From: Psammoneis japonica
Taxonomy: Eukaryota
NCBI GenBank assembly: GCA_008632985.1
Contig: QPGO01000003.1
Coordinates: forward strand, 1-64,000
Length of the DNA stretch: 64,000 nucleotides
Direction of reading: 5' to 3'
Position 1 is the first letter of the stretch; each line of letters begins with the position of its first letter. This document shows, piece after piece, positions 1 to 53,700 of the stretch. The translations under genes and the position numbers were made by a program. The notes under the pieces are model-generated. The model saw nothing but the letters and a program-made list of their open reading frames with translations. It was not told the DNA's origin and searched no databases.

Positions 1-221
1 CCTGGTTTTTTAGCAGAGTGTGTCCGCACGCACTGGTGCATTGTGCAACGGGCCTGTTTTTTGGTGAGTGTGGCGAGAAGGGGACAAAAAAGGACGACGG
101 GCCAACAAAAGGCAAAAAGCAGTGACAGACACGCAAGCAATCTGGCAATGTTCAAAGCTGCCACTGCGGTCGTTGCAACAAATGCAGTGCTTTCAGAGCA
201 AAAAATTGTCGCCGAATCAGT

Positions 222-413
222 TCAAGCTCTCTTGTTGCACTGGAATGGGTGACAAAAAGGAGCTTTGATGCAATGATCCGAGGCAGCGCCGTTCTCAGAT
301 TTCAGGAACACCCACGGCCAGCACGGTGCAAGCCGACACCCATTCTGAGGACATTGTGTGAATGCAGAGGCACTGGAACAGTGTTCGTCATGATGGTGCT
401 TTCTGGCTTGGGA
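222..413 (+). pseudogene. Truncated partial copy of the P-loop NTPase gene, cut inside Walker A by a MITE end
   Basis: GTVFVMMVLSGLG (about 367-413) matches GAVFVVMAPSGLGKT at about 762-810. The sequence switches to the MITE terminus at 414. Confidence 0.6.
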
Positions 414-545
414 GACACATTCCAGGTCTAGTTGGGACCTCCCACTGCTGAGCTGTGACATCGACAGTTTTTTGAATCGCATCGCATGTCACGCGCACAC
501 ATTTCTACGTGATTTTGGCAAAATTTTGTGTCATTTTATAGCACA
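414..545. mobile_element. Eroded left-end fragment of the GAC...GTC MITE family
   Basis: gacacattccaggtctagttgggacctc...ctgtgaca...acatttctacgtg aligns with the left end of the element at 46752. Confidence 0.75.
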
Positions 546-643
546 ATTGTCAGGCGATCCATTCAACAACTTTTGACATTTTTTTCTTCTACAAGAATGG
601 CGTGGGGCATGCACATTGTCCAAAGCTTCAAGTGTGAACAGGG

Positions 644-1530
644 ATGCATGCACTGCAAACTTGGCCATTCATTTTGTGTCAAAGACAAACATGTCCATTG
701 ACCAGATTACGAACTGCAGAGCTCACATGCAGAATTCTGCAGGGCAAATGTCACAAAAAGAGAGGCTCTGGAGCAGTGTTCGTTGTGATGGCACCTTCTG
801 GCTTGGGAAAAACAACAGCTGCCAAGCAGTTTTTCCATCAGTTTGAGCAACGAACACAAGGCGTTGCAATTTGCTTGCAAGTTTCATCAATCATGGAGCC
901 TCATGTTTGCCCAATGCTTTTGGCCTTGGGCCTGAATCCTGCCAACCCGCCAAAGGGTTGGCTCAAATGCTGCATCAATTGTCTCCACAATGCAGGCAAT
1001 GACAAGCCAGATCAGCAAACCTGTTTGGTGCTCGACGATTTTGGTGGGACTGGGGAAGATGCAGAACTCATCATGGCACTCAAAAGCCAGGCACAAAATG
1101 CGAACACGCTGTGATCATTGCACTTGCCAGAGCCAAGGAAGACACAGATTTTTGCTGTCCCAAAATGATTTGGTGTCCACAATTCCCTTGTCAAATGCCT
1201 GCCCAGACTGTCAAAATCTGTTTCCGAACAGTGAATGGGCAAGCATGCACTCGGACACTCTGATGCACAAAATGTCAGCAAGACTTCAGCCACGCTTTGT
1301 CAAGGAATTCACAAGAGATCAAATTGAAAATGCCATCGATCAACATGTTGGAAGCCCCGCACCACAGCAGATGGACCAATTGGATCCTCCATCTGTGTGG
1401 CATGTGCTGGAAGCAGTTCTTTTGTCGCCCGCCAAACCCAGCTGGAATGTTGATGCAGCAGCCACTTTGTCAGGGGAGGGACCACTGGCAGAGAGTGGTG
1501 GTGGTTGTGCTCAGTGCATTGTTGTTTGGC
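644..1530 (+). pseudogene. Decayed P-loop NTPase (AAA-like) gene
   Basis: Walker A APSGLGKTT and Walker B LVLDD. It continues after a frameshift near 1110 and has no Tyr codons. Confidence 0.6.
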
Positions 1531-2799
1531 CGTGCACCTTTGGGTTGCAAGCACAGTTCAAAGGCCAGAGCCTGCAGATGAGCCAATGGCAACCACAGCT
1601 CCGCCACCTGCAGATGAGCTCTGACCATGCCCAAAAATTCAATGGCCACCAGTCAAACCACACCCACCGACATTGCCAACCCACAAGAGCCAACCACAAT
1701 CACAAAACAACAAAGTGCCATCTGAACATCCCACTGGCATGGGCGCACCACACACCATTGTCACAGCTGAGCCAACCATCACCACAATCACAGAAGGGCT
1801 GCCAACTCTTTTGCCAGCTGAAGAAACCAAAACATCAACTCCTGCTGTCACAGGAGCACAAGCACCAATCCTCAGCAACACCATCCATGGCACCAGCACC
1901 CTCTGCTGTGGATGGACAGCCTCTCATCATCATGTTGCCAGTGAGAGACACCCTGCTGGCAGTTGAGGAAGCCCAACCATGGAGCCAGAAGAGCCAGACA
2001 ATGGCACAAATCTGCCAATTGTGGCGCCAATGACACAAGCTCCTCCAGCCACTGCAGAAGAGCCAACAATGCAAGCTCTGGCCACTGCAGAGCCAAGAAC
2101 ATCACAAGCTCTGATTGCCATTGATGCAGGTCACACAAACCCATGTGAAGATGGCCAGAAAAAGCTGGCATGCTGCATCAAGTGCAGGGTGACACTGGGC
2201 AGTTTCCTCCATTGCCCGCTTGCCCTTGAGGCTTGAAACAAAAGCTCCGTCATTGTTCGTGGTGCACCAGGACTTCTTCAGCCAGCACAAGAGTGCTGCC
2301 ATGTCCACAGAAGTGTTTTCAGTGCACTGCCCACCTGCCAAACAGAAACTCAACACACCAAAAAACTCTGCTGAAGCAGAGCTGGTTCTTGGGATGGATG
2401 GCAGCATGCCGCCAGTGGTTTGGATCAGAAAGTTTCTGGAAAGGCTCACAGTCACTGACACAATGAAGTTTGCTGGGACAACTGGAGCGCAACACTTCTC
2501 AAGTGCAACAGCCATGCCTCCAGTGGGAGGAGAACACATCGTGTGGACATCTGCTGATGCTGCTGGTTTGTCATGGACCAAGAGTCAAAAAAGAAGACCC
2601 TTCTGAGGAGATGGTTGCTGATTTTTTTGCCAAGAAGCCCCTGTGCAGCAGCTTGTTGAAAAGGTTTGTGTGTTGGGCCTCTAGGATGGGGGGGAAGGAC
2701 CCCAAGCTCTCTGTGGTGGTGTGCTGGAACCCAGGCTCATGCCAGCACAGTGCAAAGCGCAGACTGTGTTGAAGACATGAGGCCTTGACAGCCACACCA

Positions 2800-3094
2800 G
2801 CCACACTCCAGCTCTGGCTGGGACCTCACACTGCTGTGCTGAGACATGAGAGAGCTTTTGTGACATGTGCCACCTCATACACACACTTCTGTGCAAGATC
2901 TTTTTTTGCAAATTTGTCCCATGCTGCCCCCTGTTTTGTGGAGGAGTGAGTTTGTGCATTTCGCAAAATTGCCTCTTTTTCTGTTGGCGATTGTTGGCAT
3001 GTTCGTCATTCTCAATTGTTTTGCTGCAGAGCTCACATGAAGCATTCTGTGGACCCATTGTCACATGGAGCCCTGTCCAGTGCCAGAGCATGCC
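2800..3094. mobile_element. Eroded MITE copy (about 295 bp) with 4-bp target-site duplication ACCA
   Basis: Both ends align to the termini of 46752-47145, and it shares the core ttcgcaaaattgcctctttttctgttggcgat. ACCA lies at 2796-2799 and 3095-3098. Confidence 0.8.
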
Positions 3095-5798
3095 ACCACA
3101 GCATCAAAAGATCTTTTTTCTTGGAAGAAGGAGAAGAAAGGGAGGGGGGGGAGAAGATCCAGAGGATCTTCTTGCTGTTGCAAGGAGGAAACCACAAGCT
3201 GACAATGGCGGACCATCTTTGACAAATGCCCTTCTTCAGCATGTCCCGTTGTTGCATCGATGCAGCCCTGGTGTGGCAAGCACAGAAGCTGCTCCTTGCT
3301 GTTTGTTTCACAGCTTTGTTTGTTTCACAGCTTTGGTGGACAAAAAGCACCCCACCAGCGCAGTCCAGCCAGCACATGTGCATGTTTTGCCAAGTGGAGG
3401 AATTTGGCAAAGAGTCTCTTGTTTGGTTTTTCACCAGGCAAGAAGAATGACAATCAACAGCATTGTTGTTGTTGTTGTTGTTGTGACTGCAACCCCACAC
3501 AGTCCATTCGAAACCACGAGCGAGCGATCGAGCGAGCGAGCCGGTGGTCCCACCAAGTTCGTACGTCTACCGTCTACCGTTCACCATCCCTTGCACGTAC
3601 GCATCACGCACTTAGTTATTCGCCCATGGCGCTTGCTTGTTTGCCGTTCCATGTAGAAGACTCTGAAAGTGCTCTCTGCTGTTGCAATTGGTGTAAAGTC
3701 ACTTGATAGGTTTAAACTGTGGCTGGAGAGGATCATCTTCTGTAGAAGACTCTGACTAAAGAATAAAGAACACACCATGATGACAAACCAAGAAACAAAA
3801 CGCCAGACAACGACTCTAAACGGGGCTCCTCCCTTTTGCCGTTTAAAAATGTACGGAGAACACAAGCGAGCAGTCTCAGCTGTGGCCATGTCACCTCGAA
3901 ACGACAAGGAACATCCTCTCGTTGCCTCTGCGTCTGCCGATGGCACTGTCAAGATTTGGGATCTCAGTGATGGCAGCGGTGGTGGCAGCACTGTTGTCGG
4001 TTCTTTGGACAATAATGGCGACAATGTGCAAGCAGCCAATTCACAACTGGGAACCTCATTGCTTCCTTCACTGGTCCTGATGGGTCACTCGCGAGGTGTC
4101 AATGATGTGGCATGGTCGAAAACTGGAGATTATGTGGCTACAGCATCCGATGACAAGACGCTAAGGTTGTGGGATGTAAACACCGGAGAGGCTCTTGTTG
4201 AGTTTCGGGGGCATTTGAACTTTGTCTTTTGTACGAAATTCAATGCAGCCTTTAGCAACAATTTATTGGTAAGCGGAGGATTTGATGAGACTGTCAAACT
4301 ATGGGATGTTCGAACGGGTGATTGTGTATCGACTCTTCCGGCCCATTCCGATCCAGTCACGGGCGTTGACTTTAATCGCAAAATTGCCTCTTTTTCTGTT
4401 GGCGATTGTTGGCATGTTGTTCGTCATTCTCAATTGTTTTGCTGCAGAGCTCACATGAAGCATTCTGTGGACCCATTGTCACATGGAGCCCTGTCCAGTG
4501 CCAGAGCATGCCACCACAGCATCAAAAGATCTTTTTTCTTGGAAGAAGGAGAAGAAAGGGAGGGGGGGGGAGAAGATCCAGAGGATCTTCTTGCTGTTGC
4601 AAGGAGGAAACCACAAGCTGACAATGGCGGACCATCTTTGACAAATGCCCTTCTTCAGCATGTCCCGTTGTTGCATCGATGCAGCCCTGGTGTGGCAAGC
4701 ACAGAAGCTGCTCCTTGCTGTTTGTTTCACAGCTTTGTTTGTTTCACAGCTTTGGTGGACAAAAAGCACCCCACCAGCGCAGTCCAGCCAGCACATGTGC
4801 ATGTTTTGCCAAGTGGAGGAATTTGGCAAAGAGTCTCTTGTTTGGTTTTTCACCAGGCAAGAAGAATGACAATCAACAGCATTGTTGTTGTTGTTGTTGT
4901 TGTGACTGCAACCCCACACAGTCCATTCGAAACCACGAGCGAGCGATCGAGCGAGCGAGCCGGTGGTCCCACCAAGTTCGTACGTCTACCGTCTACCGTT
5001 CACCATCCCTTGCACGTACGCATCACGCACTTCGTTATTCGCCCATGGCGCTTGCTTGTTTGCCGTTCCATATAGAAGACTCTGAAAGTGCTCTCTACTG
5101 TTGCAATTGGTGTAAAGTCACTTGATAGGTTTAAACTGTGGCTGGAGAGGATCATCTTCTGTAGAAGACTCTGACTAAAGAATAAAGAACACACCATGAT
5201 GACAAACCAAGAAACAAAACGCCAGACAACGACTCTAAACGGGGCTCCTCCCTTTTGCCGTTTAAAAATGTACGGAGAACACAAGCGAGCAGTCTCAGCT
5301 GTGGCCATGTCACCTCGAAACGACAAGGAACATCCTCTCGTTGCCTCTGCGTCTGCCGATGGCACTGTCAAGATTTGGGATCTCAGTGATGGTAGCGGTG
5401 GTGGCAGCACTATTATCGGTTCTTTGGATAATAATAATAATAATATGCAAGCAGCCAATTCACAACTGGGAACCTCATTGCTTCCTTCACTGGTCCTGAT
5501 GGGTCACTCGCGAGGTATCAATGATGTGGCATGGTCGAAAACTGGAGATTATGTGGCTACAGCATCCGATGACAAGACGCTAAGGTTGTGGGATGTAAAT
5601 ACCGGAGAGGCTCTTGTTGAGTTTCGGGGGCATTTGAACTTTGTCTTTTGTACGAAATTCAATGCAGCCTTTAGCAACAATTTATTGGTAAGCGGAGGAT
5701 TTGATGAGACTGTCAAACTATGGGATGTTCGAACGGGTGATTGTGTATCGACTCTTCCGGCCCATTCCGATCCAGTCACGGGCGTTGACTTTAATCGC
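2961..5798 (+). repeat. Tandem duplication, two copies of about 1.42 kb (2961-4375 and 4376-5794), with TCGC microhomology
   Basis: Near-identical copies. TCGC occurs at 2961, 4376 and 5795. Confidence 0.95.
3777..4379 (+). pseudogene. WDR5: 3'-truncated duplicate of WDR5
   Basis: Same N-terminal WD40 repeats as the gene at 5196, ending at VDFNR at the duplication junction. Confidence 0.85.
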
Positions 5799-6411
5799 GA
5801 CGGAAGTTGCGTGGTGAGTGGATCACACGATGGCCTTATACGGATATGGGACACCGCCACGGGAGAATGCCTGAAAACAATCTATGCCATGGGAATCCAC
5901 CCGTTTCCTCGGTCAAGTACTCTCCGAATGGCAAGTACGTGCTAGCCGGAACACTCGATTCAAAATGCCGTCTGTGGCACATGGCGTCCAAGGAACACCA
6001 ATCTACCGACAAGACGTTGGTTGGTGCGTCTTCGTCCAATCGTGGTGGCGGTGGCAAGTGCACGCGCATCTACTCTTCTCCGGATCATGTCAATTCCAAG
6101 TACTGTATTGCCAGTGATTTTTGCAATTCTCCGTATCGCAACTGCGTCGTGACGGGATCCGAGCGCGGTTCTATCGTTCTCTATGACATTCAAAGCCAAA
6201 AAGTTCATCAAGTTTTGGAGGGGGGACACTCGGATGCGGTGTTGGCGGTTGCGTCGCATCAAAACAAGAGTTTATTGCTTCGGGTGGCATGACACAAGAC
6301 AAAACTGTGCAATTCTGGAAACCAAATCGTGAGCAACAGCAAGAACCGGGGCATGAAGAACAAAAAGAAGGGCCTGCTAGTGATAGCAACAAGAGACCAA
6401 AGTTACAATAG
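5196..6411 (+). CDS. WDR5: WD40-repeat protein WDR5 (COMPASS subunit); apparent frameshifts near 5890 and 6270
   Basis: Motifs GINDVAWS, ASDDKTLRLWD, LPAHSDPVTGVDFNRDG, IRIWDTATGECLKT, NPPVSSVKYSPNGKY and IASGGMTQDKTVQFW. Stop TAG at 6409-6411. Confidence 0.9.
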
Positions 6412-9320: not shown

Positions 9321-11176
9321 TCATCCCATATTGGCATAATGTTGTTTGAGCACCAAAATACTCCCTCCACAGCATCTTTTTTCATAATGCAAAGTTCCTT
9401 GACAAGTCCCAAAAACTTTTTACGTCGTTCCGGCGTGGCCCGTTTGGTATCAAAAATCTTCATGAGACGTTTGAGTGGAATGGAACCGTGATGAAGCCAA
9501 ATTTCACGACGAATCGCATCGAGACTAATGATGCGTTGACCATTTTCGTCCGTCTCGGGTTCGGGGGGCATATTCGTCGTGGATGCGGCAGGAGTTGGAT
9601 TGCTTTTTTCGGCAGCCTTCTTGGCGGCTTCGGCCGCGGCAGCTTCCATTTTGGCCAAGGGATCCGCTTGAGCAGCAGACGCATTGTTATTGTCTGCTGC
9701 AGCCTTGTCGGACGCGGCAGCAATGGGCGAAGCAGCTCTTGCAGCCGCAGGAGCTTGTTTGGCACTCTGCTGTGAGGATGGTGATGTAGGACGGTCCTTC
9801 TTCTTGGCATCCTCTCCTTATTTGCCTCATCCTCGCTGCCACTGGCCATCATGTTGGTCGGCGAATCCCCCCGTGCCTTGGCCAACATGGCACGAAATCC
9901 CGCCACCGTTGCAAGACCTGCCGCACCACTTAAATCTCCCACATTATCGTCCTCGTCCTCCTCCTCATCTTCTTCTTCATCCTCATTGTCGGCCGCAAAG
10001 CCACCGGTATCCACCACCATTTCGGCTCACCCAAATCAACATCATCATCATCAAATAGTTCATTGGCATCATAATCCAATTCTTCATATTCGGCTTGAAC
10101 ATCACGTTGATAAAAATCATCCGCCATGGCTAATCCGTCATTGCCCATGCCCGTATTTGCTTTTTGTCTTGATCGTTTTTCGTCGTCTTGTTATCCTCTT
10201 CATTGGTGACTTTACCAAAATGACGTTTACCACCAAATTCGGCATGATTGGTTCCACCCAAAACACCCTCCTCATCCATGGTCACGACACCATCATCGGT
10301 TGTCAAACTGGAAAGCAATTCTCGTCGTGCCGCAATGATGATGATTTGCGTCCAGGACGACGAAAGGCAACATCCGCCATGACATCATCATCGTCATCAT
10401 CATTCTCATCTGTTTTCAATGACAATTTGTTCAAGAGACGTGATTTTGTATTACCAGAAGCAGAAGTAGTATTCTTGTGCATCATGAAACGTGTCATTTT
10501 TCCACGTGCATCTTGCATGGCTTGTTCGGCTTGTGTCATGGACAAGGCTTGTCCTTGACGGGGTTGCGACATGGCCACTAGTGCATTCGGTGGCATGGTT
10601 TGTACCGAAATTTGATTTTTTCCGGAAAAAGAAAGAATGACGTAACGACTCGGATTGTATTCCGAACACCTTCGTACCGTGACGAGGGTGCGTTGGCATT
10701 CCAAGTATTGTTGTTAGACTTTTTTTTCGAAATCATGTATTGTACAAATTCTTCTTCTTCTTGTAATACCCATTGACGTTGGGGAGTATCGTTGTTACGA
10801 CGACGGCGTTTGGATTTTTGTTGTTGTACTGCTGATTCGGCTTCATCTTCAGACGAATCCACTTGAGCCTTGGGTACATCTTGTTGATACAGACGTGCTG
10901 AAGTCTTCCAATTTGTAGAAGAAACAAAATCAGGACGAACCACGGATTCACCAAATTTGAGAACTTGAGGAAAACTATCTAGGGGTGGAATGTGTTGTTG
11001 CTTTGTCTTTTTTTTGTTGTTGTTGGCAACGGGATCGAGTTGGTTTGTAATGGTAGAACCCTTGACAAGAGTCATGCGTAACGATTCACCCGGTTGAAGG
11101 AGCTTTCCACGACGAGTCAAAACAAATCCATACCACCGACGACACTACTACTTGAAGAAACAACATTCGACGACAT
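9321..11176 (-). CDS. Transcription factor TFIIF large subunit (RAP74/Tfg1)-like; several frameshifts
   Basis: RQWVLQ, YEG...SRYVIL and LSMTQAEQ segments, an acidic EELDYDANELFDDDD region, and a C-terminal winged-helix-like ISLDAIRREIW...LVKELC. Confidence 0.7.

Positions 11177-36661: not shown

Positions 36662-36694
<33 letters not shown>
36647..36694 (+). repeat. (CAG)n microsatellite with one CGG interruption
   Basis: Directly visible. Confidence 0.95.
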
Positions 36695-36695
<1 letters not shown>

Positions 36696-37386
36696 CCAAC
36701 CACAATGCCAAACACACAGAGCTTGTGAGGCAACAAACTGAGAACCGCAACAAGCAGTGGTCTTGGCAGCAACTTGCTTCTTTTGGAGAACAGGCCAACA
36801 TGGCCAATCAGAAACTTGTTGAGGAACAGAGTGCAGAGTTCTTGCTCATCAGCTGGCTTATGTGAAACTTGTGGCTCTAGATTTCCCCTAAGTCATTTTA
36901 TTTTCAGAAGATGTCCATAACGGCTTAAGGGCTTATCAGTGTGGACCCTCATGACTGGTTGAGTGACTGCAACATTGATTATTTAGTAACGCTTCAATTT
37001 TTATAATATTTCGTCGGACTCTCGACATCAGCTGTCCAAAGAAATTCTGTCTTCCAGTGAGGGCCTACCATAGTACACATAAGACGTGCGCACAGAAAAC
37101 AACATACGGGCTGATTGACAGACTGCTTCAGTAAGATTTCTACATATTATTCTTTGGACAGCCGCTGTCCAGAGTCTGCCCCCCCCCAGCGAGCATGGGT
37201 TTTTGTGCGGTCCGTGAGTCCGTGATTTTTTTGGGAATTGTCATGCAAAAAAATAGATACTGTAATGTCTAATGTCATCTTTTCGCGGTTAGTTCAAGGC
37301 TCAGTGCAAGGAATAAACCAATAAGCAAGGACACTCCCTCTGTGATACAACAACTCACTGCATGACACAATACTCAGAGTGCAGCC

Positions 37387-41025: not shown

Positions 41026-41441
41026 GTTTATCAAACCAACCAATGCTGCGTGCGCAGAGAAGAGTGCTACTTTTGTTGTGTTGAATGGTAGCAGCTCTGT
41101 CCGCAGACGGCTCCCGATCGGTCTGAAGCCACAGAATCGAAACATCAACAAGTCGAGTGACAAATACGGTGCAGATCGGAGACCACTTATAGAGTGAATG
41201 GAGAGCCATACTCAATACCGGTAGAGGGCAATCGTCTGAAGGGAGTTACGATTGGCACTACCGTATTGTGCGCAGTTCAGAATGAACCCTAACCCAAACG
41301 GACTACCCTGTCTTTGTCAATAGTCTCAATTTAAACCCTCTCTACTACAAAAACTGAAGACTAGAAGATCAGCCTAAGATGCACAGAAATCATGAATTAC
41401 TACCCTTCCTTTTGCACGATCACAATTTGTGTAACAATGTG

Positions 41442-44400
41442 TTACCGTGCATCAATTAGTTTTGCTCGAATGCTCTTGATGTGCCTCCCCTTTGTGTCCA
41501 AGACCAATTCGAGAACTTCGGATTCCGTTGAAACTCTTAGCGGCATCTCATCTTGTACGCCTGAATGATTTGGATCTGGCAACGGGATCTCAATTGTTTT
41601 GTTTCTCGAAAAGAATAATATCTCCTTTCCAGTTCTATATATGACCAAGACTTTCAACAAGGAATCTACCCCTTGTTTGCTGCGGCTTTTGGGCTTGCAA
41701 AGTCGCCCTTGACCTGAGATTTCGAGAATATTCCACTTTCTAATTCAGACGTTTTTGTTCGGAATACAATGGTACCCGTCCGCTTCGTTTTGGAAGTAAG
41801 TGTCGCCATGACAGGATCTGCCACTCTCATGTATTTAGCACTAGCCTTGTCATTGCTTTCAAATCCCGGAATAGCAAGAAGCTCCTCGCTTTCATAGTTC
41901 GAGGCGCCATAGCTTTGGTAGTCCTTCTTGCAGTACTCACGGAGATAGCCGGGGGATGTATCGAAAATCTGACAGTAGGAGGGAACTTTTTCGTCAAAGC
42001 TAAATATGTGCAGCAACTAAACCTTTCATTTACCGCTCCAACGGGATGGCTCAAGTCGTCCATGAAGGTTTTGCCCGAGACAAAGTAGTTACCATTCTCG
42101 CATCCAGGAATGCATTGCACTCTGTCATAGCCCTGTGGTCGGTTCTTTCGTCCCATTAGGTCTGACCATTTCTCGCACGACCTGGTGTCACAATTTGCTT
42201 CAAGTCCGTTTCCATCTCCGTAAGAGTACTCGTCGGTCAATTCAAAGAGCGAGTGACCAAGCTCATGTACCAAAACTAAAGAGGAAGCAGGATGCATTGT
42301 CGCAGTAGCAATGTTTGCACTTGTATAGCCAGCGCCTCCATACTGCCTTGAGCTATGAATGACAACAGTTTGAAGATTAGGTCCGACAGGGAAGCACTTG
42401 CTGCCTAAGTCGTGGGCGCGTTTTATGTCACAGCACAAGAGTCGATCAAATCCCTGGCAGCCCAAATTACAAAACGACTCGTCGAGATTCAATGGGTCTA
42501 CCATAAACACATTGAGCTCATCGATCTCTTCTGCAAACATATTATAGTTTTGCATGAATCGATACGTTCTGTAGACCTCATCTTCCCAAGCATCGTGACC
42601 AACCGAATCAAAGGCAGACGCAACGAACACGATGTTGATATTGTGTTTGTAAAATGGAGTCCCAAACGTGTGTTTGATTGGATAGCAATCCGGCGATGCC
42701 ATGCAAACGCCACTCCGACACGTAGAGGACTTGCACTGCCTATTGTTGGAGCACGGCCTACCAGCGCCCAAGGATCCTGGTTCTGCATCTACTTGTATTT
42801 TGTGGTCGGTGTCACCGGAGCCTGGTGGTAGCTTGACCACGGGTTTATTGGACGGTGCGATAGTGAGACCAGTCGCTGGGACCGGTGAGGGTCCTGGCGT
42901 TGCAATCGTTGTTTGGTATGAAGCCGGCGATTGAGTTGGTGACGGTGTAGGAGGCTCTGAAGGGAAGGACGTCGGCCGCTGAGTCGGAGATGGTGTCGCT
43001 GATGCTGAAGGGGATGTCGTGGGGTACACAGTAGGATTCCTTGTCAACGGGGTGGTTGGTAAACTAGTTGGGGTTAACGTTGGTCGCACCGTGTGAGGAC
43101 TTGACGGAGTCGAAGTCGGATCCCTTGTAGGCATTGAGGATGTCGGTGAAATTGATGGGGTCATCGTTGGGGGAGGCGTTGGTGGCATCGTCAGAGGAAA
43201 AGTTGGTGCGGCTGTCGAAGTTTCTGTCGGTGCCATTGTCGGGCGAGAAGTCGGTTGTAGTGTCGGTGGAGCAGACGGACTACTTGTTGGGGTTAACGTC
43301 GGTCGCACCGTCGGAGGAGTTGATGGTTCCGAAGTCGGATCCTTTGTAGGCGGTGAGGATGATGGCGAATTTGATGGCGTCATTGTTGGGGGAGGCGTTG
43401 GTGGCATCGTCAGAGGAAAAGTTGGTGCAGCTGTTGGAGTTTCTGTCGGAACCATTGTCGGGCGAGAAGTCGGCCGTATTGTCGGTGGAGCAGACGGACT
43501 ACTTGTTGGAAACAAAGTGGGAAAAGCCGTCGGTACTCTTGTCGGCGGCGCAGATGGGCTATCCGTTGGCAACAAAGTGGGATTAGCGGTCGGTTTTCTT
43601 GTCGGTGTTGCGGTGGGTTTGTGGGTTGGGTCTGCGCTAGGCAACGGAGTAGGTCGCGATGTAGGCCTTCTCGTAGGGGATCTTGTGGGTGTAGCAGTCG
43701 GAGGCGCCAATATCGCAGCACCAAAATCAATCGGTTTCCACAAAAACAAGAAAGGCTCACCACGATTTCTTGTTTCACCTGTATTACTCGTCATTCTATT
43801 GACGTTGTCCCAAGAATTCCCGTTCCAAAGACAAAAATTCGCGTCTTGTCCGTTGTCCTGGGCGGCAAGCATGATGTTATTCCCCCTCGGCGACGAGAAT
43901 ATTCTCAATGAGTTTGGCGCATTTCCCAAGTCGGGCCCTTGCCTCTCATTAGACCAGCCATTGCTTAATGACCACATTCTGTATCGTAATTTATTATCAA
44001 ATTGTGAATAGACTGCCATTGCCCTTCCCGTGGCGTCCTCAAATGCCACATCAATGCCTTGAAACTTTTGGGCAAGGGAACGAGATGCAGCATTCGTGAT
44101 TGATCCCCACATTGCGTTTCCATCCCAAACAGCAAGCCAAAATGAAAAGTACTTGAAGGTTGACACTCCCAAAACAAGGCGATTGCTAGTCGGATCCGAA
44201 GATATGGAGAGAAAGGCAACATTATACGACATTGAGACACCGCTGGGTGGTGCTATTGTTCCTTCCCGACTCCATTCAATGCCATTAAAAATGCGATAAT
44301 GTAGCGTGGGAGACTTTTTTGCATATAATAGCATTGCTCGACCACTCTGCTGTTCATAGGCGACCTTCACCTTGATTTTGCCCCAATTTTCATTGTTTTT

Positions 44401-45005
44401 CAGGTCTAAAGAATCACTCCAACGCTTTCCATCCCAGACGATGACATTGTCCGATGAAGAAGGCCCAGCTACGGATAAGATCATCTCATCCGATAAAGGA
44501 CTTGCCACCAAGTCGATTTGGTAATGGCTGTCACTTGTATTCGGCAATCGTATCTTTGACTCCATGCTCCAGGATCTGCCATCGAATGTTCGGTAGTGAA
44601 TTTCATCCGTATTCCCCTTGTGCCAAACCAGCATGGCCCTTCCCGTTAGAGATTCATAACGGATATCAAATGATGCCTGATACCATTCTGTTGCCCTGTA
44701 GTCCAAAGGAGAAAAGGGAAGGTCTTTCCATGTAACTCCGTCGTAAATTTGTGCTGTGACTCTTTGATCGATCGTAATTCCAACGACAATTGCTTCGTCC
44801 CGAGTTGGTGAGTAAGCCCCTTGATAACTTTCCATCGTGATCCAGTGCTTCTCATGCTGCCTGATTGAGAGAATCGTTCTCCATCCCAAACCGCGTAACC
44901 TGGCGTACTGCCACTGTTTGCCCAAATGGCCAAGTCCTGTGCAGATGCAAACGCCAACGCCAGGAAAGCAACGGCGTGATTCAAGACTGGAGAGAAGTGC
45001 TTCAT
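41442..45005 (-). CDS. Secreted protein with WDG-repeat (propeller-like) domain, PT repeats and peptidase M64-like domain
   Basis: Signal peptide MKHFSP...ASAQ, repeated (W/Y/F)DGxxW units, YGGAG and LVHELGHSLFELTDEY. Confidence 0.85.
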
Positions 45006-46629
45006 GGTGTTTACTTATTTCTCCTCTGCCTCTGTTGCAATAATTTTGGTTGAATCGATGTGAAGAGTTTGTTGGCGGCGGATCGAGAGCGAGGGTGGCG
45101 GAAGCTGAGAAATGAGTGAGTGCGAGAAACACTTTGATTTGGTGACTGGCACATAAAAAGATTAGATATAAGCCCAATGCCCGTGGACATTTTGGACGAC
45201 TTAGACATTCTACTCGCGTCATCCATCATCCTTGATCCGGAATGACTGTAAATCATTCAAAGTGTTTAGCATGCACCCATTTATTCAAGGATCTGCACTG
45301 TGCTTCATTCTGGGGCCAGACAAAATCTGCACCTGTCCTGGATGGAAATAAATCTCAATCAGTGCCCCATCTGTCTCTCCCCCTCTTTTCATCGCAGGTG
45401 TGTGCAGAGGACAGCACCGTGTCTCCCTGACTGGACGGTGCCAAGTTGAGGGCACGGGAGGTTTTTTTTCAAAGGTCGTGCAATTTGCCAAGTTCTCGCA
45501 AAATGGCCACAGTTCTGGCAGGCTCAACGAAAATGTGTGCTTTACAAAATTTGCACCTGGCAGCTTTGAAGGACATGTGCTCCACATGGTGGCGGCGCAA
45601 GTTGGGCGGTCTTTGAAGAGAGCCCCTCGATGCACTCACTCTTTGGTGCAACCCAGGCTGCTGGCATGGTCTTTGTGCATCCAATGTGCGCTGGTGCAGC
45701 AGAGAAAGGAGAGAGAAGACAGGTGGCATGCAAACTCAGATTTCTGCCCAGAAGAGCTGCAGATTTTGTCCAGCCCCCTTGTGGAGCACAACCACAGATC
45801 CTCAAATGGGGGGTGCAGATTTTCTGTGATGACCAGGGCGGCATGCAGCCACAAAGAGAGCAACAAATTGTTGGCAACAATGACACAATGGGTGAGCAGA
45901 GCAGTTGCTGCAATTTCTGAAAAAATGTCAAACTCTCTCATGGGCAGCTTCTTAGATGGCTCTCACACTCGCACACTTGGAAATGAGAAACGAGTGGTGT
46001 GCCATGTGCCCACACTGTTCCGGGCTGTCAACTGACAAATCGCACTGCAGCTGAAAGATCATTTTGTTGTTGACACACAGAAGAAGCTTGTTGTCATGGC
46101 ACACTTGCTTGCACATTGCCAGTGTGAATGATGGTTGGATGCACAGTTGCTCAACGTGCACATGCAACAGGTCATGAGAGCAGCGGTGCGATTGCCTCTC
46201 TGTGGCGCACATGCTGCTGGCAGCATCTGCAGTTTGCCAAAGAAGTCTGCAAACTGGGCCCATTTGGTTTGCAAAATGTGTTTGCAAACAGAGTGTTTGC
46301 AAGACACTGAAGTCTCCCAACTGGCTGCAAACAGCTTGCAAAGTGTCTGCAAACAAAAGAGCTCATCCAGTGGCTCGCAGCTCAAGCACACATGAGCCAC
46401 ATGTCAGACGTGTCTCTTGCCTGGCACCGCTGTCATCTTTTGATGTGTCTGAACATGTCTGCTCCATCGCATTGAAGAAGCACAACAACTTTCTCAGCAA
46501 TGACTTGAAACAGACTGGTGGGTGTGCCCCTTTTCACATGAAATGCGCAACCCAAGAAGAGGTGTTGGTCCTTTGGCTTTCAACTCATTTGCCCCAAGTG
46601 GAAGAAAACCTCAGTTGTGTGCATTGGTG

Positions 46630-48850
46630 TTGGAGCTTCATGGCTTGCCAGCTGGCACATGTCAAGTGTCGCCATCTCCTGGCTTGCTGCATGGCTTGCA
46701 AACATGTCAGCCTGATGCTGCCAGTTGTCATCGACATGTTGACCAGGTGCAGACGCGTTCCTGCTCTAGGTGGACCTCGTACTACTGAACTGTGACACAA
46801 TTATTTTTTATCATCCGTCGTATGTTTCGCACGTACATTTCTACGTGTTCTATTATAAAAAATTGTTCCACACTGCCTGTTTTGCGAAGCCAAAGGCTTT
46901 CTGTTATCTGCACTTATGTCAATAAAAATGCGCTGGGTATATTCTTTAATGTCTGAAGAACATACCCGCGCATGCTGTAAAGAATGTACTTCAAGTGTGG
47001 AGGAGGAGATACGTTCGCAAAATTGCCTCTTTTTCTGTTGGCGATCATTCATATGTGCATTGCTTAATAAATTTACTACAGAGCTCGCACGTAGAATTCT
47101 ACGGGCCCAATGTCACAAAAGTCCCACCTAGGACTGGAACCCGTCTGCAGAAGCTAAAAGGTGAGCACAAGACCAGCAACTCAACCCAAGTTGCGGAGCG
47201 TCAACTTGCCATGTTGTTCACAACTGTCAGTGCATCCTGTGCTGCAACTTTGTCTGTCCACCCTGCAACAACTGCCTCTTGTCCCAATGTTCCAACACAC
47301 ACTCCTTTGACAAGTTGTCAATCAATCGACCTTTTGCACATCAAGCACAGGAGGATGACACTTGGAAATCATGCCACCCAACACCATGCCAGCTGTTCCA
47401 TTGACTCTTGTGGTCCACATCATCTGACTCCACTGAAGAATGACTGCTGTCAGGACAATCCCTCCTTGTGTGTCTGACCTTGTTGCACTTCCAGCATGTG
47501 ATCTTCTTCTTGTCATTCTGCACAAAACTTGTGCCCTTGGGTCTCTTGTTGGTCGTGCACGTGTCAAACACCTGCAGCGGTGCTTCTTTGGCTGAGTTGG
47601 GGCACACATTGACCCCCAATGTGAGCTGGTGCCAACTCAGGTCCTTCAAGACATGGCAACACTCCTTGGCACCTTCCGCTGGCATTGCTGCTGATGACCA
47701 GCTCCTTTTTTTGCTCTGGGTGTCATCAACATCCTTGCCAAACCCATCTTCTTTCTTGGCGATTTCTTCTGGGATGATCCTGCCAGGGGATGCTTCCACC
47801 ATTTCAACCACACTGACAAACCAATCACAGCAGCATTGAAGTGCTTCTCTGTTGTCTTGATGAATGAGTGCCAACTGCTCCCAAGCCTTCATCGCCTGGA
47901 CACATGGGTTTGTTTGCTCATTTTTGCATCAAACAAAATTGACTTGAGAGTGCTCAGCAGTGCCACCATGTCCCACTCCTTTGTGACTCTCACAAGCTCT
48001 GCCACTCCTTCAAGCTTGTGACCAACAGCCTTTGCACATTGCCCCGCAATTGTGTCAAATGCCCTCACCTTCTGCACCTTGTGGATCACACTCTGCTTCA
48101 CACAGTGACCACATTTCTTGCCTCAGATCACCTTGTCCTTCTCCAATGCGGTGTCTTCTGTGATGGACAATCTGATTCTCCTGGCATGTGCTCCTGCCTT
48201 AGAGACAACAGCGCCTGCATTTTTGGCCTGAACATTCTTCTGACATGTTCAATGAGATCTTCCTCGTGGTTTCCATGCATCCATCTGCCTGTCTCGTCCC
48301 AACTCGGCAATGGTGTCATGCACCCAATCCTTCAAATCTTTCACACTTCCATGCCCAGCTGCAATCTGCCAACACAAGGTGTGCCTTTGGATTCCCACCA
48401 ACCTTCTGGTCTTTTTTTGGGTTCTCACGCACTTTCCAGGAGCCCTTGTCTCTGCAGGCTCCTCTCTCAACTTCTCTCAGCCCTTGTTCTGTTGACTCCT
48501 CTTGACTTCCCAGCCCTTGTTGAACAACAACACTCCTTTGAGCATCATGCCATGGCTTTTGGCTTCTGTGTTGGAGCTTCTTGGCTTGCCAGCTGGCACT
48601 CACATTTGGTCTCACTGTCTCCTGACTCACCGTGTGGCTTGCAAACACATCAGCTGATGCTGCCAGTTGTCATTGCAGCCATGTCAACTGGGTGCAGAAG
48701 CCAAAAAGTGAGCACAAGACCTGCAACTCAACCCGAGTTGCAAATGTAAACTTGCCACATTGTCCACAATCATCAGTGTGTCCTGCGCTGCAACTTTGTC
48801 TGTCTGTCCCATGAAAACTGCCTCTGACCCTGATGCTCCAACAACTGGGC
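46630..48850 (-). mobile_element. Decayed Ty1/copia-like retrotransposon remnant: gag region between two diverged direct repeats (46630-47300 excluding the MITE, and 48570-48850)
   Basis: Zinc knuckle CWKCNKVRHTRRDC, and gag-like segments IAGQC..KLE..DMVALL and LGVNVCP. The flanking direct repeats could be LTRs. Confidence 0.6.
46752..47145. mobile_element. Intact 394-bp non-autonomous TIR element (MITE) with 4-bp TSD TGCA
   Basis: Left end gacgcgttcctgctctaggtggac; right end reverse complement gacgggttccagtcctaggtgggac. TGCA at 46748-46751 and 47146-47149. The related repeat near 48690 shows the empty site. Confidence 0.9.
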
Positions 48851-50199
48851 AGGAAAAGTCCAAAAACAATGCAGGTGCAGCCACAGCTGCACATTCAAGG
48901 AGCACAGAGGAACAAAAAGCTGAGGCAGGATGTGGCGCTGATGAAAACTGATTGAGGTGCAATTGGCACTTCTTGCAGGCTTGAACTGGAAGAAGTTGAA
49001 GGCTGCATGACACACACACAACAGCAACAAAGTGGGGTCATCAGCTGTGGGACAAGAGCACCAGCAGCTCAGAGTCAGGAGGGTGGTTGAGGAGGGGGTT
49101 CTGTCAAGACTCCCACACAAAAGGAAGAGGCCTGGCTGCAGAGTGAAGACAGAGAATCAGCAGAAAAAGATTTTGGAGGTCTGTTCAAGAGGTGGGCAAA
49201 GAAGGAAACAGACTTGCAAAAAGTTTTTCCCCATGTGAGATTCTCCCCTGCAGAGCCAGCCCCCCATTCAAGATTTGACAAAATTTGTCTCAGGCAAGCC
49301 ATGTGTCAAAATCAAGAAAGAAGGCAGGAAACAAGTTGGTTTTGGCTTTCTTCTTACACACATGGAAGCCTGCCCTGCTCCAGGGGCAAAAATGTCATGC
49401 TCAATGCACAGAAAGCCTCACAAGTGCTGGTGCAGGTCATGATGCAGAAAACCACTTGTTGCAACAGATTGCAAAACACCCTTTTGTCCGATGATGAAGT
49501 CACCATGCTGGTCACACTTTGAGTGAATTGAGAGTTCATGGAACACATGAGGGAGCATCATCCAGTCTGTGGCACTGGCAGCAAAGTGCTGAAAAATCTG
49601 GTGCAGGAGCAGCACAGCACAAAAGACCAAACCCATTTGCAACAACAACCAGGAGCCTTGCTTTGCTCACTGCCTGCTTCCAAGGATCCATTTTCTTTTC
49701 CACCATCATGTCTGTTTCCTTGTGTTGACAAAATGGCAAAAAAGGGGCTAAAGTTGATGCCATTGTCCAGGCTGAGCTTTGCTTCTTCTTGCATCTTTGG
49801 GAGCTTGCTCATCAACAAATGTTTCATTGAGCACATTGCGAATCACTCATGCCAACATGTTGTTGAAAAAAATCCTTTGTGTCACATTCAAGAGCCTGCA
49901 TTCATGTGCTGGAACATCAAATTGTCTTTTGATTTGCGCATGAATGAGGCTGCAGGTTGCTCAAGGGAGAGCCAAGCTCTGGCTCTGCAGTGCCATTTGA
50001 CAATCAAGAATGACCAAGCCAGCCCTCAGTTTCAAACATGTGGGGGCACATGTGCACGAGGCCTTTCCATGATGTGTGCCCCTGCCAACATGTTTGAAAA
50101 TCATTGTGTTTTGTTGACTGTTCTTGAAAATGGTGCCAAAAGTTTGGGCCATGCATTTCATGCAAAAAATTCTTGGAAATGTGTGCCTGAGTCTAGAAC

Positions 50200-50730
50200 A
50201 AGCCACACTAGGAAAAATGCTGTGCTGGCATTTTTCCTGCCAAAGTTGTGGCAGCAAAAAGCAAGCAACACAAATCCAGCTGACTTGTGCAAACATTTTG
50301 GTGTGCAGCAGCATTTTATGGTGCAGTGTCAAGTTTTCAGATGTTGTGCTCAGCACTCCATTGAGCTGCACTGTGCATTGTGATGTGACTGAGAAATGAG
50401 GAGAAATGGTGCTGGCACATGACCTGCCAAAGTCATGGCAGCAAAGATGCAAATCTGACTGTCTTGCATTTCCATCAGCTCCAGAGGAGTGCAGCACTGA
50501 CTTTGGATGACACACTCAGCACTCCATTGAACCATGCCCCCCCTGCAATTTGGTTGAAAAATGCATGGAAAAGTGCAGTGTCAGCATTTTGCCTGCCAAA
50601 ACCATGTTGCCACAAAACACAAGCAGCACAAACTCAGCCATCTCATGCTTCTGTTGCTGCTGTGCACACAGCAGCTTTGGGGCACAGCACTGAGCTTTGG
50701 ATGCTGCACTTGGTGCTCTGTTCAGCATGT
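50200..50730 (+). repeat. Degenerate tandem repeat, about 3 units of 170-190 bp
   Basis: Recurring cctgccaaa and cagcactccattga segments. Confidence 0.5.
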
Positions 50731-53700
50731 TGCCATCTTGCCACAGCTTTGAAAAGCAGGGTTTGGATGAAATCTGATGAGAGCAGTGCATCATGATTTT
50801 TGAGAACCCAGGAATTGAGCCATTTGGATGAGCAGATTCTGATGAAAATGTGACATTCAAAATGATGGTGGACAGCACAGGACACACAAGCACTGTGGCC
50901 AGCCAACCAAAGCTTCAGTGTGTGCCTCAGGACACTTTGCTTGTCACCTCTTGCTTTTTGCCTTGCACATTTGAGAACCAAGAATCAAGCCCCAAACCTC
51001 GTCATTCTTTTTTTCAGCAAAGAAGCACTCATCTGTGCCACCACTGGCGAGCTTCATTTTTGCAACAAGAAGCTGTGCACACAACAAAATGTGATCTCAT
51101 CTTGTGACAACCAAAAGATGGTGGCAGATTGGGCCTGTGCTTTTCATTCACACATTTCTCATTTTGCAAATCATGATGGCTGGTGGGGAATCCATGGAGA
51201 GGGGGGACATGTGCGCGCTCCTTTCAGGGCAAGTCTCTTGCACTTCACACACTTGTTTGCAAGCTGTGGGTTTGCAGCACCAAAGCTGGTTCAATGGCAA
51301 ACACAACTGCTTTGCTGCTGCAACAAGAAACAGGTGTGTTTGCTGCTTTGCAGCTGACAAACTGTGCTTTGCAAAAATGGCTTGTGTTGGAAAAACCTTT
51401 GCAAAAAACCGCAAACCAAAACACGGTTGTGCAGCAAAATCCAGAGTCCACTGAGGAACACTCAAGGTTGTTGTCACAGATTCGACACCTCTCCAAGTTC
51501 ACAATGTGGTATGAAGTGCATTGCAAAGTCCATGGCAAAATCACACTGACGCACAAACAGTCCAAAGACAAACTGACACGCGAGTGAGCATCGTCATTGT
51601 TGGCGACCTCACTGCGACACACTTGCTCTCTTTTCTCTCTCTGACAAAAGAGTCCGCTCTCTCAACATGTCTCGTTCCAACCAAAGATGATGATGCTTCC
51701 ACTCAAACAACTGAGAAGCAAAGGCAGGCACCTTTTTTGACATGTAGCTGCCTGCCGAATCCCATGAACTGTCTGGCATCCTGCTGGGCATGATGCGCGC
51801 AGTGCGCGGTGACATGAGCGATTTTTCGCGCGCGCCGCAAACACAACAGACATACACAACATGATGATTTTTTTCAGAGCGACAATGATGGCTTGCGTCG
51901 CTTATTGCACCGTCGCCTTTGATTCTTTATAGTACAAGGTAACACACTCATAAGATTATATCTCTATTCGTTCATATGATGCATATGCGTTAGCTCTGTC
52001 TCGATAATTACCGTGAGACTTACAGAGACTGTTTCAATGCCGTGACGCGCTGTTGTTGCTGTTTTGATTTTTTGTTTTTACATGTGCTCCCGTCGATCCT
52101 CTCATAGTTTCTATTTGTCGCAATGTTGCATCATTGTTTCATAGGCGGCATGGAACAATGTCCATGTAAGCACCATTTCGGTTTTTCCCTTGTTGTTCTC
52201 GAGGTTGGCGTTGCGCAATGTAAAAGCCATCATGGACAACCACCTTATGTTTCACAGGCACTGAAATACGATAGAGCCCTTGTTGTCGTTCAGGACACGC
52301 ATGTACATGTTTGACAATCGGAGTCAAGATACTCAGAGTCTCAATTAAGCAAATCACTCTTGTCGTGGCTTGCGTTGTCGTCATTTGTAAAGACAGTACG
52401 TACGATCCTTTTCGCAGTCGCTGCGTCACCAAAGGGCGGGCATTGACGACTCGCAGACGGCTGCGGGATGTACACGGAAAGAATTGCAACATGTGTAAGG
52501 TGGCATAGTGCTGGGAAGGTACATTATTGTTTCCGCCGTTTTGTGGGCCTTGTATTGCTTATCCATATTCTTTTGCTCATTCGGGATGGATACCGTCTCC
52601 GTTTGGTTATATGTTATCAAACTCGATGGTAAAGGAGAAACAGTAGTTGTCCTACATTGGGCCCGGTATCTTCGCAGGGCGGACGTTGCCAGCAGAATGA
52701 GGTATTCAACATTTTCTCTGAGCGTATGATTATTTTGTGGTGGGACTATTACGACTGTTGGTTTCTGGGAAAGAAATGAAGTGTAGGATTGTTCAATGCT
52801 GCCGATACTACTGTACCTACGACGACGTGGACGAGTATATCAACCAAGAGAGAGAGTTAGTGGTTGATTGTTGGTGGCTCGCCATGTCCCTTTTTCATGC
52901 CCTATGGTGACATTATGGCTTGGGAACGAATATACGTACTCAACCAATGTCTGGGCGAGAAAAAGTAGAAAGAAGAAGGAAGGAAACTCGCCCGACTGTC
53001 GGTTTCGCTGGTCTTTCGAGAGGTTTTGTTGAAGGAGAAGAGTGTACGATTACAGATACGGTATGCAAAGGTTCTCGCTACATGAATATGCATACGCTAA
53101 CAAGAATGCTTCAATGTGGAATAATACCGGTGTATTATATATTGATCCGTCTTATGTAAGTACTCGTGGACGACCTGTGTATTGCAGGAACCTCACTATA
53201 GTAGTTGTACACTCACAAATGTTTCTCCATTGAATGGCAATAAGGATACTGCAGTCGCATCGGCTATTACGGGTTTCGTCCACAAGCCCTACAATATCGC
53301 AAGAGTGTGCAATTGCGTTACCCTATCTCGGATTTACGGCCAAAGACTTGCTGCGAAGAATACGCCCCCTCTTGCCCATACTCGCGAGAATGACACTTGC
53401 GCAAAAGCAATAAGCCGTGGTGGTACTTGATGGGTATGCTCGTAAACTATGCAGGTTTCGATGCCGGCATGGCATGTGATCATGAGGAGGTCTGGATAAT
53501 TCGCCAATGTCGATTATCAACCAAAGTGTCGATTGCTCCTTGCGACTGTTGCAAAGGTGATATCATTTTGTGAATGCCCCGTACGCTACGACATCCGTCG
53601 TACGTCAATAATGTGGGGCATCTTCCGTATGTAGCTTGGCAGCCTGCATCTGCAACTAGATATGTTGGGTTTCAACAATTGTACAAGGAGGATTCAATTG

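Follow-up and report, generated by a model that had tools for sequence, protein, structure and literature searches.

Repeat-induced point mutation (RIP), a process of ascomycete fungi that erodes mobile or repeated DNA, is a transition hypermutation specific for a dinucleotide: CpA/TpG is converted to TpA by C>T changes on both strands and in place, both copies of a duplication are mutated, the GC content falls, and sharply bounded islands of skewed composition are left behind. RIP needs a cytosine methyltransferase-like protein (RID/DIM-2) and a sexual cycle. CpG decay of the methyl-cytosine type, which has been reported for the cytosine-methylated transposable elements (TEs) of diatoms, cannot remove TpA. 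Before 2026 no process was known that removes TpA specifically, and the single report concerns one chlorarachniophyte, Bigelowiella natans, and integrated giant-virus DNA (Mettrop et al., bioRxiv 10.64898/2026.01.13.699255). In mutation-accumulation lines of B. natans two integrated viral regions mutate approximately 1000-fold faster than the rest, with 230 of 231 mutations being A>G or T>C, all on TpA and yielding TpG or CpA (Mettrop et al., 2026). The genome contains, in addition, 124 clusters of windows that are poor in TpA, rich in CpA plus TpG and enriched in TE domains and unannotated genes, TE domains being found among the TpA-poor coding sequences; an ADAT2-like adenine deamination is proposed by the authors; BjADAT2 and TbADAT2 are cited as acting on DNA, and the preference of ADAR for a 5′ U is quoted (Mettrop et al., 2026). 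The subject here is the matching signature in a diatom, found in 64,000 nucleotides from Psammoneis japonica (assembly GCA_008632985.1, contig QPGO01000003.1, positions 1–64,000, forward strand), which as a whole are referred to as the window. A first-pass annotation of this DNA had stated that a system of this kind was not known to have been described, which the B. natans preprint supersedes. For the phenomenon a full-text literature search found only this preprint and, for diatoms, no report of a TpA-specific hypermutation, so that, to the extent of the searches, evidence of it in a diatom is given by this window for the first time.

Seven blocks, together 14.2 kb, are nearly without TpA; the remaining 49.8 kb serve as outside reference. 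The blocks are as follows (o/e, observed over expected frequency):

B1, 1–3562: TA-free, CpG-poor island that extends beyond the start of the window; 9 TpA; o/e of TA 0.04, CG 0.31, CA 1.79, TG 1.77.
B2, 4373–4981: duplicate of the B1 tail; 1 TpA; o/e of TA 0.03.
B3, 20438–21622: TA-free, CpG near normal; o/e of TA 0.02, CG 0.71.
B4, 30444–31702: TA-free, CpG near normal; o/e of TA 0.03, CG 0.75.
B5, 35317–36859: TA-free, CpG-poor island; o/e of TA 0.02, CG 0.26, CA 2.04, TG 1.87.
B6, 45349–46767 (45349–46747 up to copy A of a miniature inverted-repeat transposable element, MITE): left part of a TA-free, CpG-poor island; o/e of TA 0.03, CG 0.33.
B7, 47155–51745: right part of the B6 island, with TE-like content; o/e of TA 0.03, CG 0.15.

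The o/e of TA is 0.02–0.04 in each of the seven blocks versus 0.61 outside, and that of CA and TG in the blocks is 1.2–2.0. In total 27 TpA are observed where 610 are expected from the outside frequency (Poisson P = 2.6e-218). The longest TA-free run measures 1974 bp at a window-wide median TA spacing of 15 bp, and the sequence of the blocks is complex and non-repetitive rather than microsatellite. The boundaries are sharp, the usual TA spacing returning within approximately 10 bp past each block edge. For example, at the right edge of B1, 684 bases without TA are followed by TAs at 3562, 3568, 3575, and 3598. The distribution of TA o/e within the window is bimodal rather than unimodal: of 128 non-overlapping 500-bp windows, 23 are below 0.1 and 5 at 0.1–0.3, the others being mostly at 0.3–0.8. 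CpG is strongly depleted in B1, B2, B5, B6, and B7 (o/e 0.15–0.43) and mildly in B3 and B4 (0.71–0.75); GC is 0.499 in the blocks versus 0.469 outside.

The first-pass annotation had thus correctly described sharply bounded blocks of about 14 kb with almost no TA. Its count of seven holds for the TA-free stretches but not for independent loci, of which there are five: B2 duplicates the B1 tail, and B6 and B7 are split by a MITE-like insertion. Indeed, self-comparison aligns the sequences flanking MITE copy A (46627–46756 and 47146–47297) to an unbroken stretch (48568–48843), from which it follows that B6 and B7 are one island. Nor is the effect domain-wide over 1–51850, as had been claimed, since it is restricted to these five discrete loci. 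It may be added that 10001–10750 has an intermediate TA o/e of 0.34, with raised TG/CA (1.44–1.50) and normal CpG; this could be a region in partial conversion or just coding sequence.

The spectrum of changes can be read directly from a tandem duplication involving a WD40 gene (Pfam matches to WD40 in the open reading frames, ORFs, 5196–5945 and 5807–6292):

Copy 1, 2961–4379, + strand: B1 tail, promoter and first approximately 200 codons of the WD40 gene; its TA-containing part is 3563–4379.
Copy 2, 4376–5798, + strand: carries B2 and the 5′ part of the WD40 gene, which runs on past 5798; keeps its TpA.

The two copies are 98.7% identical by self-comparison. Copy 1 is a truncated WD40 fragment sandwiched by B1 and B2, whereas copy 2 goes on into the full gene. 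Over the 602-bp TA-free part the copies are identical except for indels. Substitutions number 15 in the 817-bp TA-containing part; 14 of them are transitions with G/C in copy 1 and A/T in copy 2, and 13 of the 15 affect a TpA of copy 2. Where copy 2 has its 38 TpA, copy 1 reads 26 TA, 7 TG, 4 CA, and 1 CG; all 12 differences are losses in copy 1, copy 2 is untouched, and the reverse, a TA of copy 1 opposite TG or CA of copy 2, does not occur in the 817-bp part. The specificity is high: 13 of 76 bases within TpA differ between the copies versus 2 of 741 other bases (Fisher P = 1.3e-12), or, expressed per dinucleotide, 32% of the TpA are changed versus 0.27% of other bases in this young duplicate, in which TG (68 of 68), CA (54 of 54), and CG (39 of 40) are otherwise unchanged. 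A RIP-like direction, CA/TG to TA in copy 2, would lead one to expect new TAs also in its TA-free part, which is rich in CA/TG, but TA stands at CA/TG sites in 0 of 123 cases there versus 11 of 133 in the rest (P = 8.5e-4). From this comparison the segment 3563–4379 of copy 1 appears to be undergoing conversion since the duplication. At one site, copy 2 has three TAA units (5436–5441) where copy 1 reads GGCGAC (4017–4022); both bases of one TpA are changed here (TA to CG, which creates a new CpG), plus one A outside TpA, and this may hint at clustered events.

On a larger scale the losses and gains of dinucleotides balance. Relative to the outside frequencies the blocks lack 583 TA and 452 CG, together 1035, and have a surplus of 1040 TG plus CA (TG +444, CA +596). 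Deficit and surplus also agree approximately within single blocks (265 vs 273 in B1, 50 vs 48 in B4, 395 vs 383 in B7). When TA and CG of outside DNA are converted in silico to TG/CA at random, the 16-dinucleotide profile of B1, B5, B6, and B7 is matched with r = 0.968 versus 0.775 for unconverted DNA. The two components can be separated, since B3 and B4 have lost their TpA with a CG deficit of just 7 and −2, respectively, and the young duplicate shows 12 of 38 TpA changed and 0 of 40 CpG converted to TpG/CpA. By these comparisons TpA loss is a process separate from CpG decay and a much faster one.

Both strands are hit, as the counts of TG and CA products are about equal (364/430 and 513/541). 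The order of TG and CA along a block is random by the runs test in B1 (z = 0.20), B3 (0.23), B4 (−0.37), and B7 (−1.27), ten outside controls ranging from −2.85 to 1.04. Strand coordination, as expected from processive single-strand tracts, was thus not found overall by this test and is missing in four of six blocks; the interspersion of TG and CA indicates many independent events on duplex DNA rather than one single-strand pass. With respect to the neighbouring base (Y, pyrimidine; R, purine), the strand-resolved comparison of the duplicate gives 11 of 41 TAY sites changed versus 2 of 37 TAR sites (P = 0.0145). Conversely, the residual TpA of the blocks (n = 21) contain 10 YTAR, where 16.7% are expected (P = 0.001), and 2 RTAY, where 30.8% are expected. 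The block surplus is +402 for YTGY/RCAR versus +93 for YCAY/RTGR, which, after removal of the symmetric CpG share, points to a fraction of approximately 0.8–0.9 of the YTAY sites as resolved via change of the A. The preferred target is therefore likely the A of 5′-TAY-3′, which equals the T of 5′-RTA-3′ on the opposite strand. It should be noted that tRNA adenosine deaminases act in the context U33-A34(-C35), which T-A(-Y) resembles.

A MITE-like element is present in the window in three states of conversion:

Copy A, 46748–47149, + strand: 402 bp, unconverted; splits B6 from B7.
Copy B, 413–770, + strand: partly converted, in B1 (alignment A3).
Copy C, 2799–3075, + strand: internally deleted, fully converted, in B1 (alignment A3).

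Copy A has terminal inverted repeats of 26 nt (46748–46773 and 47124–47149, 85% complementary), sub-terminal inverted repeats as well, and 29 TpA between 46767 and 47129. In X1, a public DNA run to which we return below, the summed word depth is approximately 50,000 in the bin that contains copy A (46680–47313) versus approximately 60 in its flanks, and copy A thus probably resembles many genomic copies of a very high-copy MITE family, for which the depth would give approximately 800 copies. The 18 alignable TpA of copy A are read as 2 TA, 7 CA, 4 TG, and 5 other in copy B and as 0 TA, 8 TG, 6 CA, and 4 other in copy C. The residual TAs of copy B (429, 506, 537, 539, 590, and 708) account for six of the nine within B1. 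Of the 14 CpG of copy A, 10 are read as CA/TG in copy B and 10 in copy C, the latter with 7 CA, 3 TG, and 2 CG kept. By these alignments the copies have been converted in place, according to their location and graded over time. On either side of copy B stands a 54-bp direct repeat of the gene into which it is inserted (366–419 and 761–814, 83% identical); an ordinary target-site duplication would be shorter. In metagenome contigs an exact 31-nt search for the MITE copies gave 0 matches.

At the protein level the effect can be followed in the gene that copy B interrupts:

P-loop pseudogene, 225–1526, + strand: in the pieces 225–419, 734–1099, and 1149–1526; broken by MITE copy B and a frame shift.

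Residues 29–93, 68–187, and 204–323 of the closest homologue, P0243 (323 amino acids), match these pieces in tblastn at 55%, 58%, and 42% identity. At the seven aligned tyrosines of P0243 the pseudogene has C, H, N, C, F, C, and H. No tyrosine is retained and five of the seven are now cysteine or histidine, which are exactly the residues that TAY to TGY and TAY to CAY give; the loss of Tyr codons had been anticipated in the first-pass annotation. The direction from TA to TG/CA follows from these homologues, which have Tyr, together with the test on the tandem copies and the resemblance of the TA-bearing MITE to many copies. P0243 belongs to an orphan P-loop family (P0243–P0269) of approximately 320 amino acids with the Walker A motif GxGKTTA, the Walker B motif LxLDDF, and a C-terminal CxxC. 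Among 1.84 billion representatives the family has 27 hits at E ≤ 0.001, all of them environmental sequences, and a cluster look-up of five members returned no informative name.

That the TA-free sequence is real is indicated by X1, which contains 84% of the sampled words of 44500–52500 and whose contigs were placed on 34000–53000. Contigs of X1 match TA-free DNA at 35423–36642 with 0 differing letters (a contig of 1267 nt), at 45529–46376 with 6, and at 49432–52415 with 3, and their depth over the TA-free stretches is 56–62 as compared to approximately 57 in flanking single-copy DNA. Among the differences listed between the window and the X1 contigs there are double differences of CA versus TG at 49105–6 and 49265–6, a TA/CA difference at 48468, and a TA/TG difference at 50210. 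These fit the separate resolution of one TpA in different alleles or copies. Also among the differences listed are three positions inside TA-free islands (45782, 46007, and 49861) where the window has TG and the X1 contig CG, as would be seen if CpG decay were still segregating among alleles or copies.

Taken together, the islands are very probably the end state of a region-restricted hypermutation of DNA in place, TpA to TpG/CpA, which matches the signature of B. natans and is now met in a diatom. The earlier proposal of a targeted A:T to G:C conversion at TpA on both strands is borne out by the mass balance, the spectrum of the duplicate, the states of the MITE, and the loss of Tyr. In such a process the A:T pairs of TpA would become G:C on either strand, giving TpG or CpA, and the conversion would recur until the substrate is exhausted, approximately 96% of the expected TpA being gone. 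Any DNA within a targeted island would be hit, be it TE remnants, a pseudogene, resident MITE copies, or a truncated gene duplicate between two islands, and conversion would halt within approximately 10 bp of the island edge. CpG decay of the methyl-cytosine type would additionally have eroded the older, TE-like islands. What the window itself demonstrates is the specificity of the process, its direction, its effect on both strands and in place, its recency, and its sharp edges. As to the chemistry, enzymatic deamination of adenine to hypoxanthine, which is read as G, by a TadA/ADAT2-like deaminase is a possible but tentative choice; targeting would be via silent chromatin or small RNAs, and the role would presumably be genome defence. 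More speculative again is the view that diatoms possess an active genome-defence mutator that follows chromatin domains, deaminates the A of 5′-TAY-3′ in double-stranded DNA, is related to the B. natans system as an old trait of the whole stramenopile-alveolate-rhizarian (SAR) group, spreads out of silenced islands into neighbouring genes, and rewrites coding sequence (Tyr to Cys/His, TAA and TAG stops lost) at a speed that would count in the birth and death of genes.

The same signature could be produced by another chemistry, in which the T of TpA (5′-RTA-3′) is oxidised to 5-hydroxymethyl- or 5-formyluracil by a TET/JBP-type enzyme and then mispairs with G or is mis-repaired, resulting in T>C. 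TpA is self-complementary, and in the sequence a T>C in RTA therefore looks the same as an A>G in TAY. 5-Formyluracil does mispair with G, and in dinoflagellates 5-hydroxymethyluracil is enriched at TpA. Thymine modification is nevertheless rather unlikely: the window offers no support for it, no TET/JBP domain is found among the 157 ORFs scanned, and the sole proposal published for the signature, in the main text of the preprint, is ADAT2-like adenine deamination (Mettrop et al., 2026). Very improbable is an editing before integration, in which the RNA or cDNA of a TE is hyper-edited in the manner of ADAR or APOBEC and the mutated copies then insert. Boundaries of approximately 10 bp, the repeated parts of B5 and B7 (depth 281–1280), and a weak gag-like zinc knuckle in B7 are what such insertions would lead one to expect. 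However, editing of a single strand predicts one product per element, whereas TG and CA are about equal and interspersed; a duplicate of a host gene has been converted in place and after the duplication; copies of one DNA-transposon-like MITE differ in conversion by location; and the preferred 3′ neighbour is a pyrimidine, unlike the G that ADAR prefers.

Three further explanations question the mutation itself or its polarity. Selection rather than mutation would be at work if TpA were harmful in these places, be it as target of Tc1/mariner-type elements, as nuclease site, or as site of UA cleavage in transcripts. TpA is indeed under-represented in most genomes and is low also outside the blocks (o/e 0.61). 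But a frameshifted, MITE-interrupted pseudogene and non-coding DNA have been purged as well, conserved tyrosines have been destroyed, and the block boundaries ignore gene structure; moreover, the contrast between TpA and other bases in the young duplicate is implausible for selection acting on single sites. Selection can thus hardly be credited. That TpA, perhaps modified, is systematically misread in sequencing, base-calling, or polishing has in its favour the nearly absolute depletion and the modification-dependent miscalls that occur on some long-read platforms, and yet the chance of this is next to negligible. The X1 contigs carry the TA-free sequence at the depth of flanking single-copy DNA, TpA is read normally in neighbouring DNA and in the MITE inside an island, and the changes from Tyr to Cys/His are coherent at the protein level, with CpG decay alongside; it is implausible that an artefact would, in two types of data, erase all TpA of some kilobases and spare that of the DNA next to them. 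Just as negligible is the opposite polarity, i.e. a classical RIP from CpA/TpG to TpA in duplicated DNA, the blocks then being unmutated DNA of odd composition. Taken alone, the differences between the tandem copies are symmetric (TG/CA in one, TA in the other). The direction test given above speaks against this, as does the fact that only a single copy is affected; kilobases with zero TpA and twofold CA/TG would be an unnatural starting point, the longest TA-free run in relatives being 442 bp in 323 kb; and homologues carry Tyr where the B1 pseudogene has Cys or His.

Several points weigh against a hypermutation in place as the source of the islands or limit its reach. The analysis covers one 64-kb window. 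X1 is possibly from the same sample as the assembly, so that its corroboration falls short of full independence, and 40 of its 144 differences from the window were listed. Two of the 15 substitutions in the duplicate lie outside TpA, and in B3, where the mass balance is poorest, the TG plus CA surplus of 29 is half of the deficit of 57. The interspersion of TG and CA is uneven, being clustered in B5 (z = −3.79) and over-dispersed in B6 (z = +2.40). The TAY preference is based on small numbers, with per-block ratios of 1.36–2.33 that are all above the outside mean of 1.27 but within the outside range of 0.69–2.47, and for RTAY versus YTAR in the duplicate alone P is 0.088. MITE copy A is inside an island and yet unconverted, which requires the extra assumption of a very young insertion. 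Pfam at its curated cut-off gave no TE or viral domain for any of the blocks (116 six-frame ORFs); B3 and B4 contain open frames at almost normal CpG, and a targeting of foreign or repeated DNA is therefore not established for these two.

In comparison with B. natans, the diatom islands agree in that the changes are transitions (14 of 15 in the duplicate, with G/C in copy 1), are confined to TpA (13 of the 15 substitutions; 27 versus 610 TpA in the blocks), hit both strands with TpG and CpA as products, and occur in discrete regions of an otherwise ordinary nuclear genome, here within 64 kb. The long-term footprint, clusters that are poor in TpA and rich in CpA plus TpG in TE-type or unannotated sequence, is also that given in the main text of the preprint (Mettrop et al., 2026). 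The two cases differ in the host, a diatom (stramenopile) versus a chlorarachniophyte (rhizarian), and in the degree of conversion: TA o/e is 0.02–0.04 here, whereas in the preprint text the region of the nucleocytoplasmic large DNA virus (NCLDV) has a Rho_TpA of 0.45 and clusters are defined at Rho ≤ 0.43 (Mettrop et al., 2026). What has been hit here are remnants of TEs, a pseudogene, the duplicate of a gene, and two segments with ORFs, and Pfam gave no viral gene in the block ORFs. Most blocks show a strong loss of CpG, while the term "CpG" is absent from the main text of the preprint; a 3′ pyrimidine is preferred here, and this main text is also without the words "trinucleotide," "flanking," and "downstream" and does not mention diatoms (Mettrop et al., 2026). 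Finally, de novo occurrence was seen there in mutation-accumulation lines (as given in the preprint text) and is deduced here from a young duplicate.

The likeness to fungal RIP lies in the dinucleotide-specific transitions on both strands, in place and in sharply bounded skewed islands. The polarity is opposite: RIP proceeds from CpA/TpG to TpA by C>T with a fall in GC, whereas here TpA gives CpA/TpG by A>G and GC is higher in the blocks than outside, and RIP mutates both copies of a duplication, whereas here one tandem copy is affected. Methyl-cytosine CpG decay has its counterpart in the low CG o/e (0.15–0.43) of B1, B2, B5, B6, and B7, where the loss is regained as TG/CA, but accounts for the CpG part only. 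With the ADAR/TadA/ADAT2 deaminases the process shares that A is read as G and that a 5′ U/T neighbour is favoured; unlike with ADAR/ADAT2, the substrate here is genomic DNA, in place and on both strands, and a 3′ pyrimidine is preferred. ADAR-type editing fixed by retrotransposition was rejected, given the missing strand coordination in four of six blocks and the conversion in place of the gene duplicate and the MITEs.

What the islands contain is only partly recognisable. The Pfam scan covered 157 ORFs in all, of which 116 are six-frame ORFs from the blocks. Six of these 116 have any match at E ≤ 0.01, and the sole one above its cut-off is a PT repeat in 31298–32326. With Pfam the block ORFs gave neither a viral hallmark nor any gene of an NCLDV or virophage; what they did give was a weak match to a P-loop and another to a zinc knuckle, and most of the block sequence is thus not proven to be of TE or viral origin. 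In B1 the P-loop pseudogene and two copies of the MITE are recognised beside unannotated sequence; B5 is unannotated and begins approximately 170 bp upstream of a prohibitin gene. B7 has the weak zinc-knuckle (gag-like) match in the ORF 47344–47928 on the − strand (E = 0.0084, failing the cut-off). B5 and B7 are partly repeated in the genome, with a summed depth in X1 of 281–1280 (313–1280 for parts of B7). As the first-pass annotation had noted, the window holds no candidate enzyme: the Pfam scan of the 157 ORFs gave no deaminase family.

B3 has an open frame of 190 codons (20750–21322, + strand) with a basic-zipper-like stretch by eye alone. No Pfam family at cut-off and no homologue at E ≤ 0.001 among proteins of 95–303 amino acids was found for it; the reading as bZIP, unsupported by Pfam and by homologues, was dropped, and the frame can only tentatively be regarded as a gene. 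B4 has a Cys-rich ORF (30492–31679, + strand) with a start that resembles a signal peptide by eye, and its translation, P0001, is without Tyr. The block itself extends into the PT repeats of an M64-like peptidase paralogue; P0001 and the N-terminus of P0002, the paralogue, are not similar, and in the Atlas look-up the best scores of the ORF were 0.79 and 0.77, below the level that shuffled proteins also reach.

The host and the background composition were judged from a prohibitin exon beside B5. It is 81–89% identical to its best hits, and all 10 hits that are named by organism are from diatoms, including Grammatophora, Fragilaria, Chaetoceros, Skeletonema, Fistulifera, Seminavis, and Helicotheca. 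Long intron-poor ORFs and an expanded gene for helicase-associated (HA) domains in the window also fit a diatom host. Judged on these features, the window is diatom DNA and not DNA of Bigelowiella. In prohibitin loci of relatives from metagenomes (n = 74, 322,872 bp) there was no 500-bp window with the block signature, and the longest TA-free run was 442 bp. These metagenome contigs are gene-rich and repeat-poor, and the control therefore addresses composition, not the absence of the process in other diatoms.

The occurrence of the same signature in a diatom suggests either a wide distribution of the mechanism among the algae dominating marine primary production or two separate origins. To the B. 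natans case the diatom adds complete conversion, sharply drawn edges, a shared location with TE islands in CpG decay, a rate far above that of CpG decay, a spread into a sandwiched gene fragment, and a likely TAY flank preference that narrows the search for the enzyme. There is also a practical side. Islands of this type defeat the homology-based annotation of TEs and genes and, lacking TAA and TAG stops, give rise to long ORFs that are spurious. If enzymes perform A:T to G:C changes in vivo at a defined motif of DNA, they would be attractive as an adenine base editor of natural origin, and since some diatoms are genetically tractable, the question is testable.

Finally, some observations concern the genes around the islands. 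Two pairs of inverted paralogues are present, one of subtilase genes (27517–30031 vs 39946–37421, 86.6% identity) and one of M64-like peptidase genes with PT-rich linkers (31760–33328 vs 43092–41489, 75.8%); one of the M64-like paralogues has the TA-free block B4 in place of its N-terminal domain. The HA-domain gene (53778–55538, − strand) consists of 5.5 tandem repeats of 201 bp and has a TA o/e of 0.13–0.27. It was considered as hypermutated and rejected, as 17 Tyr are retained and the same TAs are present in every repeat. Its best named relatives include database entries under the names of Chlamydia suis and Beggiatoa sp. PS (43% identity) beside those from diatoms.

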